A DNA stretch of 32,000 nt from Candidatus Heimdallarchaeota archaeon (GCA_030614005.1 JAUWKS010000002.1:1-32000), one strand, 5' to 3'; positions 11,833-15,499 are shown, numbered from the stretch's first letter. Translations and numbers: made by a program. Notes: generated by a model from the letters alone, not told the origin.

Positions 11833-12906
11833 ATGTCTCTAAGACCCACGTATCGAGCAATTGGCATCGATTTAGGAACATCAACAATAAAACTCTCTTG
11901 TGCGGGTAATCTCAAGAAAATTCCTTCTATAGTTGGCACTCCATTACAAGGTTGGAGTGGATTTAGTGGAGATAAATCTTTAGAGAAGAATTTAGTGATT
12001 TCTGATGGAGAAAAGAGTCTTTATGTTGGCGAGCTTGCTAGATTGCAGAGCGAAATAAAACGAGCAATAGCTAGTGAAGGGAAAGTAAAGAGTATTGAAG
12101 ATGCCATCTTAGCAATCAAAGCGGTTCTTGCTTTAATTACTAAAAAAGATCATGATCAAATTATTATGGCAACTGGTGTACCTGTAGCTTCTTCGAAAAA
12201 AGAAATGACTAAACTTGCTAAAGGGTTAAAAGGAAATCTAGATCTTAGAATTGAAAATGAAGCCACCGGAGAAAAATTCCATCGAAAATTAACGATAAAA
12301 AATTGCATAGTTATGCCGGAACCCTTTGGTACATATTATCATACTCTTAAAACTGAAGGGGAATCTCGAGCAGTAGATGCTATTGTTATCGACGTTGGGC
12401 ATGGTTCAACAGATATCTTAACCTTGTATGAAGGAAGAATTATGCGTCAAGCTTCGGGCAGCTTAGAAGAAGCGACTGATACTCTCACACATAGAATTGC
12501 TCAGGAATTACAAAATCAAACAGGTAAAATTATACGTCCTTTTGATCTTATGACTGCTCTTTCTCAACAAAAAGATATTCTCACTATTCAAGGAGAAAAA
12601 TGGGATATTGCAAGTATGAAAGAGTATCACATAGAAATAATTGCCGATGTCATTTTAGATGAAGTAAATCGATTAATAGGTACCTTACCACCTGATGCAA
12701 TTATAGAAAAAGTCATCCTTTGCGGAGGAGGAATGCATATATTTGGCGGGCGATTAAGAGCAGGATTTGAACAAGCTGGTTTAGCTGATCATCCAGAAAT
12801 GCTTGCAATGCCTGAGGATCCCGTAATGTCTAATGCTAGGGGTTTTGAAATGTTCGCAAGAACTTTTGTGAATGGTTTAGGAGTTGATGGATACAATGAG
12901 CTCTGA
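11833..12906 (+). CDS. ParM/StbA-family actin-like ATPase
   Basis: Phosphate-1 IGIDLGTSTIK, YVGELA, MATGVP, VMPEPFG, phosphate-2 VIDVGHGSTD, adenosine ILCGGG, connect-2 DPVMSNARGF. Confidence 0.92.
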   Translation: MSLRPTYRAIGIDLGTSTIKLSCAGNLKKIPSIVGTPLQGWSGFSGDKSLEKNLVISDGEKSLYVGELARLQSEIKRAIASEGKVKSIEDAILAIKAVLALITKKDHDQIIMATGVPVASSKKEMTKLAKGLKGNLDLRIENEATGEKFHRKLTIKNCIVMPEPFGTYYHTLKTEGESRAVDAIVIDVGHGSTDILTLYEGRIMRQASGSLEEATDTLTHRIAQELQNQTGKIIRPFDLMTALSQQKDILTIQGEKWDIASMKEYHIEIIADVILDEVNRLIGTLPPDAIIEKVILCGGGMHIFGGRLRAGFEQAGLADHPEMLAMPEDPVMSNARGFEMFARTFVNGLGVDGYNEL

Positions 12907-13579
12907 GAAACCAAAATCCAAAACTTCTAAAGAAAAAAAGGAGAGCTCCACAAAAAAGAGTTCTTCAAGTAAAAAATCGAAGAAAACGATTCCACAGAAG
13001 TGGAAAGAAGAATCGAAAGAAGTCAGTCGAGATTTGGATAAAGGTAAAAGAAGAACTTTAATCTCAACAATAAAACGCAGCATTTCTTTGAAAGGTGACA
13101 AACCGAAAACACCTAGTTCTGAAGCAATGAATATTGTAGTTACTCTCAGTCCAGCTAAACATATGGACATCATTGAATATATTAATGAAAATGTTGCCAC
13201 TAGAGGAAGAGCTGAATGGGTTCGTGATTCTATTAGACTGAAAATGAGAATCGAACGTGGAGTTTATGGCTTAAATTCTGGTGGTTCTGAAGATGCTAAA
13301 GATTCAGAATCATTACAAGCTGTTTTTGGTCAATTTGCTGATATGATGACCAAAGTGATGACAGATTTAAGGGATGGTCAGCAAACCGCAAGTCCAATCT
13401 CTAGCACTCCAACAGCAGCTACAACAAGACCAAGACCAGCTCCAAGCGTGGCTAGACCAACTCGCGGTGGTCCTCCTCAATTGAAGAAAGTAGAAATAGA
13501 TGAAAAAACCCAGAAAGAAATGATGCCTGATAGGCCATCCTTAGACGATGCAATTGGGGCAATCATTATAGTAGAATAA
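12884..13579 (+). CDS. Ribbon-helix-helix protein with basic disordered N-tail and short C-terminal peptide (ParR-like layout)
   Basis: NIVVTLSPAKHMDIIEYINENVATRGRAEWVRDSIRLKM fits the RHH beta-alpha-alpha pattern; K/S-rich N-terminus, P/T-rich linker, C-terminal PSLDDAIGAIIIVE. Overlaps the actin gene stop (starts possible at 12884, 12887 or 12896; AGGAG at 12879). Confidence 0.7.
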   Translation: MMDTMSSEKPKSKTSKEKKESSTKKSSSSKKSKKTIPQKWKEESKEVSRDLDKGKRRTLISTIKRSISLKGDKPKTPSSEAMNIVVTLSPAKHMDIIEYINENVATRGRAEWVRDSIRLKMRIERGVYGLNSGGSEDAKDSESLQAVFGQFADMMTKVMTDLRDGQQTASPISSTPTAATTRPRPAPSVARPTRGGPPQLKKVEIDEKTQKEMMPDRPSLDDAIGAIIIVE

Positions 13580-13601
13580 TATTGGAAGAAGTGATTGACA
13601 A

Positions 13602-14720
13602 ATGAAAGCCCTTTATAAAATTCCCTTTGACCCAAAAATGGTTTCCACGTATCTTGAGGAAGAGAAAGATTTCTTGATAGGTTTTCTTAAACTTATAGAG
13701 GCTATTGATGAAACAAGTGCAAATCAAAAGACATTAAAAATTATTTCTGAATTAAAAACAACTCTCCCTGAATATGTAGAACAAATTTTCCCTTCTAAAA
13801 ATTCATCAAACCAAATAAAAGCATTACAGACAATATCAAATATATTTGCAACTAACTTTGGAAAAACAAAATTTGAAGCGGTTGGTCTAAAAACCCGCTG
13901 GATTTCATTAGATAATGGATATCTTGGGAGAGTTGTAGAAGAGAATTATGAAATAGCTATTTTACTTTATCTTGTTTCTGCTGTATATCAATCAAGAGCC
14001 ATATCAAATGTTCAGACAAGTTTGCAGTACAGATATTATCATATATCATCATTAGCAGCATTACTAAGTGCTATTGAATTTATTGAAAAATTATCACCAG
14101 ATCAAGAAGATCACTATGCAAGACCTTTCTATCAAATGCTTTTATTAAGGAAACTAGAAATTGAAGCTGAAATAACAAAATCAGAAGCATTTCTCGCTCG
14201 CAAACAGGGTAATTTTGATAAAGCATCTAAACTTTTTGCTGGCGCAGCTTCATATAAATTTGCAATGATGAATTTCGACCTTCCCGAAGAATCTGACACT
14301 CGAGTGAAAATACTTGCTTCTACTGAATTGGGAATGTCTTGTTTCTATATTGCAGTTGGACTTTCTAATCAAAGTGAATCTGAAAAAGCTTACATGTATT
14401 TACTGAAAGCTAGAAGTTATTTTGAAAACGCTGCAAAGCTTTCTGAAAATAATACAGAATTATTAGAAGCTGCCAACAAACGATTGGATTTAGTTAATCC
14501 ATATATTGATAGAATTAAAGACACTATTGAAGAAAAAGAAATTGAAATTGATAAGATACCTGACCCACAGCCACTTATGATTTATCCCGTTCCAGAACCA
14601 ATCCTCACTCCAACCAGCAAATCTACTGAAATCTTACGAATATGTTCACAATGCAACGCAAAAATACCTTGGGCAGATAAATGCTCCGAGTGTGGAGAAG
14701 CAATAATTCCTATAGAATGA
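13602..14720 (+). CDS. Helical-repeat protein resembling a BRO1 domain, with C-terminal Zn ribbon
   Basis: TRW...YEIAILLYLVSAVYQSRA, SKLFAGAASY, CFYIAV...AYMYLLKARSYFENA, IDKIPDPQPL occur in BRO1-like order (recalled comparison); C-terminal CSQC-x8-CSEC. Confidence 0.55.
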   Translation: MKALYKIPFDPKMVSTYLEEEKDFLIGFLKLIEAIDETSANQKTLKIISELKTTLPEYVEQIFPSKNSSNQIKALQTISNIFATNFGKTKFEAVGLKTRWISLDNGYLGRVVEENYEIAILLYLVSAVYQSRAISNVQTSLQYRYYHISSLAALLSAIEFIEKLSPDQEDHYARPFYQMLLLRKLEIEAEITKSEAFLARKQGNFDKASKLFAGAASYKFAMMNFDLPEESDTRVKILASTELGMSCFYIAVGLSNQSESEKAYMYLLKARSYFENAAKLSENNTELLEAANKRLDLVNPYIDRIKDTIEEKEIEIDKIPDPQPLMIYPVPEPILTPTSKSTEILRICSQCNAKIPWADKCSECGEAIIPIE

Positions 14721-14761
14721 TAATGAACTGAAAATGTTAAATAAAAAAACTACTCTGAGGT

Positions 14762-15499
14762 TTGTTTGTGTTAATACATAAATATCGAACAATGAGATCC
14801 TTAAAAATCTGTTATTGGGGGCCTACAATGTCTGGAAAGACATTTACAATAACCGCCGTTAAGGTTATGAAATCTTTAGAGGACCCTAAAGGAGTATTCG
14901 ATTTTGTTACTGTTGCAGATCAGCAAACCGGTAGAACGGTATTCTTTGACCAAGCTGTTTTTGGATTTGGCAGCAAACCAGAAACTGATGAATATCTTTT
15001 CAAAATTCATGTTTTTACTACCGCAGGACAAAGAAGGTTACGAGAAACTAGAAAAGTAGTTTTGCAAGGCATTCATGGCTTAGTAATAGTCATTGATGCC
15101 GATTTAGATAATTGGGAAGAAAACATTTGGTCACTTAGAGAGCTAAAAGAATTGAAGGGAGAGGATATTCTTAACAAGAAAATACCATTTACTATCTTCG
15201 TTAATAAACAAGATTTGCCTTGGGGTAAAAAAATTTCCCAGAGACACGTACAACAACTCTTTGATAGTGCAGGTGTAAGTGATTTATTCCCAAATTTAGA
15301 GGACCACATTTTTCATGGTTCTTGCCAACAAGCAAAAACTGATTTGCAACAGATTTTACAGAATACTCCTCGAGACATCCTCTTAGATAAGAATGGCCAT
15401 TTTAAACGAGAACATAGACCGAGTTCCTTTAATCCTTTAATGAAATCTTTGGAATCGATAGTAAAAAATGTAATTAAGAAGCAATTTAGTGCACAATAG
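14762..15499 (+). CDS. MglA-family small GTPase
   Basis: KICYWGPTMSGKT, RTVFFD (MglA RTLFFD), FTTAGQ (MglA TVPGQ), RKVVLQGIHGLVIVID, NKQDLP. Likely start ATG 14792. Confidence 0.85.
   Translation: MFVLIHKYRTMRSLKICYWGPTMSGKTFTITAVKVMKSLEDPKGVFDFVTVADQQTGRTVFFDQAVFGFGSKPETDEYLFKIHVFTTAGQRRLRETRKVVLQGIHGLVIVIDADLDNWEENIWSLRELKELKGEDILNKKIPFTIFVNKQDLPWGKKISQRHVQQLFDSAGVSDLFPNLEDHIFHGSCQQAKTDLQQILQNTPRDILLDKNGHFKREHRPSSFNPLMKSLESIVKNVIKKQFSAQ

Follow-up and report, generated by a model that had tools for sequence, protein, structure and literature searches.

Do four adjacent genes of a Heimdall-group archaeon work together, and if so, around which of their products? The question is raised by a 32,000-nt stretch of DNA from Candidatus Heimdallarchaeota archaeon (GCA_030614005.1 JAUWKS010000002.1:1-32000), referred to below as the window, in which four open reading frames (ORFs), all on the plus strand, occupy positions 11833-15499 and are designated g1 to g4. 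An initial annotation had described four co-oriented genes with a g1/g2 overlap and short gaps, coding for an actin-like ATPase, a ribbon-helix-helix (RHH) adaptor, a BRO1-like protein and an MglA GTPase, and had proposed that they constitute a single module. The ORF listing agreed with this layout:

11833-12906, plus strand: g1, 357 amino acids (aa)
12884-13579, plus strand: g2, 231 aa
13602-14720, plus strand: g3, 372 aa
14762-15499, plus strand: g4, 245 aa, counted from the TTG codon at 14762

The explanation that we tentatively prefer, and to which we would give slightly less than an even chance, is that the row forms an operon specific to this lineage, with a chromosomal ParM-like actin of Asgard-wide occurrence and the tail-bearing partner of this actin at its core, all four proteins acting together.

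The C-terminal end of g2 provided the main evidence linking this protein to g1. From the N-terminus to the C-terminus, g2 is made of a very basic, Lys/Ser-rich segment, a possible RHH core, a helix (aa 140-164), a Pro-rich linker and a tail. Two of these parts can be located as follows:

13130-13258, plus strand: possible RHH core of g2 (aa 83-125), recognised by a strand-helix-helix pattern
13460-13576, plus strand: conserved bipartite C-terminal tail of g2 (aa 193-231), recognised by its invariance in the family

The tail covers about the last 40 residues and consists of a P-x-I/L-x-x-V/I element followed by RPSLDDAIGAI(I/V)(I/V)VE-stop. In a survey of 82 species-level genomes of the class, g2, g3 and g5, the helicase gene downstream of g4, were found only in the family of the window (f1; 12 genomes, two genera), and the g2 tail was invariant in all 12 of them. 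Furthermore, in each of the six Loki and Hel loci examined, the gene that follows a ParM-like gene ends with a tail of the g2 type, RPKLDDM(L/I)xx(I/V)(I/V)VxE-stop, preceded by a P-x-I element. The motif common to g2 and to these partners is RPxLDDxIxxIxVxE-stop. Profile-profile alignment of the two sets of tails (hhalign) gave an E value of 2e-4, and when the tail was searched as a regular expression in the six-frame translation of the 3.6-Mb genome, the single match was g2 itself. Taken over three Asgard classes, the tail co-occurs with a ParM-like gene. Since it is common to g2 and to the Loki and Hel neighbours of ParM-like genes, the g1-g2 link extends beyond local synteny and the tail-bearing protein appears to be a conserved companion of the actin. 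We regard g1 and g2 as very probably a functional pair.

The Loki and Hel loci resemble the row by a gene of the same ParM-like family (50-53% identity) and by the same tail on the next gene. However, their partner protein is longer (394-430 aa) and carries a helical SNAP/TPR-like domain (a language-model lead), a second actin-like protein (ALP) gene lies divergently upstream, and the locus holds no MglA-like or Bro1-like gene. This recurrence, in other classes, of the tail next to a ParM-like gene without any g3- or g4-like neighbour speaks for a different explanation, which we consider rather unlikely: only g1 and g2 would be a functional pair, while g3, g4 and g5 would have unrelated jobs and share the transcription unit or merely lie nearby.

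The same six loci (L053, L054, L056, L057, L058, L060) each contain two divergent ALP/ParM-like genes. The gene on the plus strand is followed by the tail-bearing SNAP/TPR-like protein, which belongs to no Pfam family; the ALP gene on the minus strand is followed by a protein of no family, 190-423 aa long, four of the six being of about 250-300 aa. The idea of a split gene, in which the Loki and Hel partner would correspond to g2 and g3 fused, was tried and rejected: hhalign of the g3 family against the partner family gave a probability of 0.2%. As both g3 and the partner are helical solenoids, the idea stays a mere lead. A second protein of about 230 aa with a near-copy of the tail (DRPLLDDVLETIIVS and four more residues) is encoded elsewhere in the genome (C112:39465-40190, minus strand). 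Its gene adjoins no actin paralogue, and weak matches to its tail-like part were detected in seven other genomes of the family.

The identity of g1 was supported by several comparisons. Pfam assigned ALP_N (3.5e-14) and MreB-like_C (8.8e-14), both above the family cut-offs. The NCBIfam ParM model (PRK13917) matched with 1.6e-18 and 67 bits against a cut-off of 417 bits, so that g1 is not a plasmid ParM at the equivalog level; PRTRC-D and MamK of the same collection also matched weakly. The closest solved structures in the PDB were Dh-cParM1, pCBH ParM and Ta0583. The nucleotide-binding motifs GIDLGTSTIK, DVGHGSTD and CGGG are intact and invariant in the alignment, and the identity of g1 across the family is 76-97%. 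The earlier reading of g1 as an actin-like ATPase thus received the agreement of both the Pfam domains and the ParM/Ta0583 structures. Judged by its sequence, g1 is an intact ParM/Alp-type actin-fold ATPase for which polymerisation is predicted. Homologues about 50% identical, named ParM/StbA at NCBI, are present in Heimdall, Loki and Hel metagenome-assembled genomes. In the genome studied here g1 is one of three paralogues, the others lying on contigs C34 and C54 (53-55% identity), and the copy of the row forms a clade of its own.

The C54 paralogue (about 12800-16800, minus strand) ends a row that includes a DUF58 (vWA) protein and a membrane protein. On a related 2.26-Mb contig (L059) the row reads MoxR, DUF58, membrane protein and ParM-like protein, which may represent another actin-linked system.

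For g2, searches of Pfam, NCBIfam and the PDB, profile searches included, returned no match, and a scan of the genome with RHH_1 at E 10 left the protein untouched. Its AlphaFold2 (AF2) monomer model was poor, with a predicted local distance difference test (pLDDT) of 54; two helices, 90-103 and 109-125, reached about 80 and come after a short hydrophobic stretch. The nearest named clusters in language-model comparison were CopG/TraM (0.82-0.84), under the threshold set for a lead. Of the proposal that g2 is an RHH protein, what stands is a compatible strand-helix-helix pattern; every sequence test of it failed.

The connection between g2 and g3 was examined in one prediction of a three-chain complex, in which g1 and g3 were combined with the C-terminal region of g2 (aa 126-231) as the scored partner. 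The interaction prediction score from aligned errors (ipSAE) of this region had a median of 0.52 (runs 0.60, 0.25 and 0.52), and the best control gave 0.00. The runs agreed in at least 33% of the contacts, and the pLDDT of the partner was at least 42. When g1 was kept and g3 replaced, the score fell to 0.00; the signal therefore depends on g3, and this control is no evidence against binding between g1 and g2. In the calibration, 58 of 80 solved complexes reached the mark, as did 2 of 110 mismatched pairs; scores up to 0.60 comprised 7 of the 80 solved complexes together with both mismatches that passed, and these counts hold roughly, own alignments and three chains having been used here. The model thus lends weak support to a binding of g2(126-231) to g3. 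This g3-dependent prediction counts against the view that g1 and g2 alone form a functional unit, and so does the genomic position of g3, which occurs only where g2 does and always lies 18-35 nt after it, the two genes being adjacent throughout the family.

Bro1/ALIX is a key accessory of ESCRT, the endosomal sorting complexes that are required for transport. The question whether g3 is a protein of this kind was approached by structure and by sequence, and two parts were distinguished:

aa ~6-345 of g3, plus strand: Bro1-domain fold, from the AF2 model and Foldseek
14637-14705, plus strand: C-terminal zinc ribbon of g3 (aa 346-368), CxxC...CxxC

The AF2 model of g3 had a pLDDT of 91.3 and a predicted template modelling (TM) score of 0.91. 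When it was compared with the PDB by Foldseek, the top 21 entries were all Bro1 domains (E 1.5e-6 to 5e-3, TM 0.51-0.64). Similarly, the list of AlphaFold Database (AFDB) clusters for g3 consisted mostly of eukaryotic BRO1-domain proteins, and a language-model search from the sequence alone ranked BRO1 families first (0.86, 203/256 features). Pfam gave weak TPR/DUF2225 matches and the zinc ribbon, nothing further. PF03097 did not match g3 at E 0.1 or at E 10, a profile search of the PDB returned no Bro1 chain, HMMER against 1.84 billion representatives found the own family only, and a shape search of the ESM Atlas yielded TPR-like entries (TM 0.3-0.4) and no Bro1 entry. Since the sequence methods fall short of BRO1, it is the fold and a probable remote homology that are supported, not membership of the Pfam family. 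On the model, then, g3 has the Bro1 fold over the whole domain and is probably a remote homologue of BRO1. The BRO1-like character ascribed to g3 from the outset was in this way borne out by the fold, the AFDB clusters and the language-model ranking.

A survey published in 2024 (PMC10936438) states that Bro1/ALIX is not identifiable in Asgard archaea. Eme et al. 2023 (PMC10307638) list 'Bro1' for Hod-, Njord- and Thor-archaea; at least some of the 'Bro1' rows in their supplement are short proteins of about 75-150 aa, filed under PF18097. Compared with the eukaryotic Bro1 proteins (yeast Bro1p 1ZB1, ALIX 2OEW/2XS1, HD-PTP 3RAU/5CRU, BROX 3ZXP/3UM3), to which it is about 10-13% identical, g3 lacks the V domain and the Pro-rich region and has the zinc ribbon in that place. 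It also lacks an ESCRT gene as neighbour, and its partner, as weakly supported by the modelled complex, would be g2 and not ESCRT-III.

For g4, phmmer against the PDB gave MglA as the best match (2.7e-15 to 2.8e-14), followed by Arl13 (5e-7). The protein contains the P-loop GPTMSGKT, the switch-I motif RTVFFD (RTLFFD in MglA), the G3 motif TTAGQ (TVPGQ in MglA) and NKQD. As in the MglA/MglB switch of Myxococcus xanthus and Thermus thermophilus, a Thr replaces the Asp of DxxGQ in G3 and an Arg is found in switch I, but in two relatives the latter is a Lys. The top PDB match and the TxxGQ motif agree with the original assignment, and g4 is by its sequence an MglA-type small GTPase. Furthermore, MglA of Myxococcus has MreB as a functional partner, and g4 is likewise encoded beside an actin homologue. 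On the other hand, g4 differs from these systems by a C-terminal extension of about 70 aa, ending in an amphipathic basic helix, and by its place in a Heimdall-wide clade of 'long MglA-like' proteins of about 250 aa, seen in every family of the class and separate from the short classic MglA encoded on C63. No MglB/Roadblock gene stands beside g4, its neighbours being g3 and g5; the nearest Roadblock gene (3899-4312) is about 10 kb upstream. MglA-like GTPases are known in Asgard genomes (PMC10933270).

The ParM-like gene of a sister family is single, and in 26 of 28 genomes an MglA-like paralogue is encoded 0.1-1.5 kb upstream of it on the same strand, as counted from gene coordinate tables and with individual loci inspected. 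This neighbourhood argues for a role of g4 beside the actin, against an accidental position next to the g1-g2 pair. It is suggestive only, because the gene concerned is another paralogue and closes a different row. In that row (L026, L029-L031, L033), an FtsX permease, an ABC ATPase, two small membrane proteins and a secreted protein of about 740 aa, bearing both an HExxH motif and an anchor at the C-terminus, come before the MglA-like protein.

The arrangement of the row was then considered at the level of the DNA. The frames of g1 and g2 share 23 nt, a gap of 22 nt separates g2 from g3, and the g3-g4 gap is 41, 47 or 71 nt, depending on whether g4 starts at TTG 14762, GTG 14768 or ATG 14792. 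The GTG at 14768 is probably the start, as the N-terminus of the relatives is MLIHKYR. Shine-Dalgarno-like purine runs were seen 5' of g1, g3 and g4. In an alignment of ten genomes of the family, the only conserved parts of the spacer between orf93 and g1 were two blocks:

11713-11737, plus strand: first conserved upstream block
11754-11772, plus strand: second conserved upstream block

Both are unique in the 3.6-Mb genome when one or two mismatches are allowed. They probably serve the row as a T-rich, BRE/TATA-like promoter and/or as an operator. All four genes lie downstream of a single conserved motif, and the gaps between them leave too little room for internal promoters; owing to these short gaps and the single promoter-like motif, the row looks like an operon.

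The survey showed that g1 to g4 are intact and in unchanged order in 11 of the 11 other genomes of the family, and both genera retain the short gap between g3 and g4, a point that is again difficult to reconcile with g1 and g2 being the only functional pair. Genes similar to g1 were found in three families and genes similar to g4 in all families; the class-wide presence of g4-type GTPases in other contexts, as well as the synteny of the whole region within the family, fits that simpler explanation. When g1 to g5 were considered as a possible insertion, the flanking gene orf93 was not found in the closed genomes of other families, and orf122 and HypB, which also flank the row, were not syntenic there.

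Several observations weigh against the concerted action of all four proteins. Their joint conservation is limited to one family of 12 genomes in which about 15 kb around the row is collinear; for this reason, the co-conservation of four genes is uninformative alone and cannot prove a module. The predicted complex scored in the weak band, with uncertainty about how the partner itself folds, and, as described above, the RHH assignment of g2 failed in sequence tests. The two other g1 paralogues, on C34 and C54, have no g2- to g4-like neighbours. The closest relatives of g4 outside the family (40-42% identity) adjoin genes for Rab-like GTPases, not actin. In the sister family, the MglA-like gene is a paralogue distinct from g4 (26-29% identity, separate clade), it is the last of a row of ABC, FtsX and secreted-protein genes, and a gene on the opposite strand is sometimes inserted between it and the actin gene. 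Finally, neither a direct-repeat array nor a tandem repeat suited to act as a centromere was detected at 11200-12000 or within 9-21 kb. For the single module put forward in the initial annotation, the neighbourhood survey therefore gave a divided answer: the four genes are kept across the family and the tail links g1 with g2, but conservation of all four is confined to this family, where the region is collinear.

If all four proteins do act together, as we tentatively prefer, the following scheme can be proposed. The g1 protein would form ATP-driven filaments, to which g2 would couple a cargo. DNA or another polyanion would be held by the basic N-terminus of g2 and its possible RHH core, and one or more protein partners by its C-terminal region. 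In the complex, g3 would act as a scaffold, a solenoid to which the C-terminal half of g2 binds. The g4 protein would be a nucleotide switch that decides the place or time at which the assembly works, in the way that MglA governs bacterial polarity, and it may be tethered to the membrane by its C-terminal amphipathic helix.

The row can be compared with the ParMRC type II partition systems (R1, pSK41, pCBH) and with Dh-cParM1. In these systems, too, an ALP/ParM ATPase gene is directly followed by that of a small adaptor, with overlapping frames, and the conserved part of the adaptor, as in g2, is its C-terminal end. Chromosomal ParMs (cParMs) are known in bacteria (PMC12270681), and g1 shares its chromosomal location with cParMs such as Dh-cParM1 (PMC12270681). 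In contrast to ParMRC, the row has no parC-like iterons, g2 has no detectable ParR/RHH sequence signature, two further genes (Bro1 fold and MglA-like) are present, and the actin belongs to an Asgard-wide family of about 50% identity.

The initial annotation had gone as far as a complete model in which a DNA-anchored ParMR system segregates DNA, a Bro1-like protein links it to scission by ESCRT-III and a GTPase provides the timing, segregation being coupled to division. The predicted Bro1 fold is in line with this model, and so are the presence of ESCRT-III and Vps4 genes in the genome and the very basic N-terminus and RHH-compatible core of g2. However, no centromere-like repeats accompany the row, the only conserved upstream element is single-copy and the RHH domain is unsupported by sequence; with no iterons found, nothing in the tests supported the anchoring to DNA. 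Moreover, g3 has no sequence match to BRO1. No ESCRT gene was found in the window or within 90 kb of the row; ESCRT-III genes were located about 92 kb away, at C9:107641-108120, as well as on C107, with Vps4 encoded on C85. Similarly, Orc1/Cdc6 genes are on other contigs (two Cdc6_C matches, C63 and C11), with none in the window. Taken together, we hold the segregation-division model to be improbable.

The ESCRT-III gene on C107 (2-352, minus strand) is of the CHMP4-7 type (ESCRT-IIIB) and is cut by the contig end; its best match in three congeneric genomes is only 40-43% identical. It is either a divergent paralogue or part of a contig from another organism. In the window itself, a homologue of the origin-associated OapC is encoded at 24878-25387 (Pfam 1e-12).

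It can also be imagined that the row specifies a single machine older than eukaryotes, with an actin-like filament, the g2 tail adaptor, a true Bro1 homologue recruiting ESCRT-III and a control of the MglA type. We give this little credence. If true, both the principle of a Bro1-ESCRT adaptor and its coupling to a cytomotive filament would have arisen in Heimdall-group archaea.

Downstream of the row stands the gene already referred to as g5:

15644-19870, plus strand: g5, superfamily 2 (SF2) helicase of 1408 aa, 144 nt after g4

Pfam placed DEAD and ResIII at aa 438-617 of this protein, and in the family the gene always directly follows g4. It is a possible fifth member of the row; given the 144-nt gap, it may have a promoter of its own. 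A copy of g5 with 77% identity was found on a 3.8-kb contig in a genome of another family, and this contig looks mis-binned.

The association with a helicase raises the possibility that g1 to g5 are a domesticated remnant of a plasmid or virus, made of a ParM partition cassette and a replicative or defence helicase and fixed in the ancestor of the family. Indeed, g2, g3, g5 and the row-specific clade of g1 are all restricted to the family, and mobile elements typically carry ParM/adaptor pairs and large SF2 helicases. The surroundings indicate otherwise. The row is flanked by ordinary chromosomal genes (ProRS, tRNA methyltransferase, V-ATPase E, HypB, ribosomal proteins), and in two genera it keeps one fixed place, with the same chromosomal genes on either side. 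Its GC content is that of the flanks, and no integrase, transposase, repeats or tRNA-type borders were seen. A search of viral contigs with g1 and g3 found no relatives of either, and the g1 family, whose members in different Asgard classes are about 50% identical, is chromosomal. We therefore regard an origin as a mobile remnant as scarcely probable, and the ordinary chromosomal setting without mobile-element markers, as first described, was confirmed. Small-GTPase, Roadblock and JAMM genes, typical of Asgard archaea, also lie near the row, and its DNA is present in marine-sediment and cold-seep metagenomes.

In the literature, within the limited coverage of our search, no paper was found that describes the row, the tail motif or a Heimdall Bro1 fold. 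The predicted fold of g3 would place a full-length Bro1 domain in the archaeal group closest to eukaryotes and in a defined gene context. In addition, the Asgard ParM/StbA-like actin appears to have a conserved partner, which a short tail at its C-terminus identifies in Heimdall, Loki and Hel genomes, and the tail and the actin provide a concrete peptide-protein pair for in vitro work. The nearness of MglA-like GTPases to ParM-like actin in two Heimdall families suggests a GTPase control of an archaeal actin-like filament and offers a simple model of the way in which the steering of cytoskeletons by small GTPases arose. The parts of the row are all small soluble proteins, open to expression and testing without a culture of the organism.

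Three other genes of the window deserve mention. At 537-1385, a Rab/Ras-like GTPase is fused to a thioredoxin-like domain (Pfam Ras 9e-34, Thioredoxin_3 1.9e-5). At 8560-9549 (minus strand), a JAB/MPN protease domain is followed by a TRAP-beta-like beta-sandwich, and this gene is kept beside the row in the family. At 21634-22056 (minus strand), a protein of 140 aa without Pfam match is 98-99% identical across species, its neighbours being 45-85% identical, and is thus unusually constrained.

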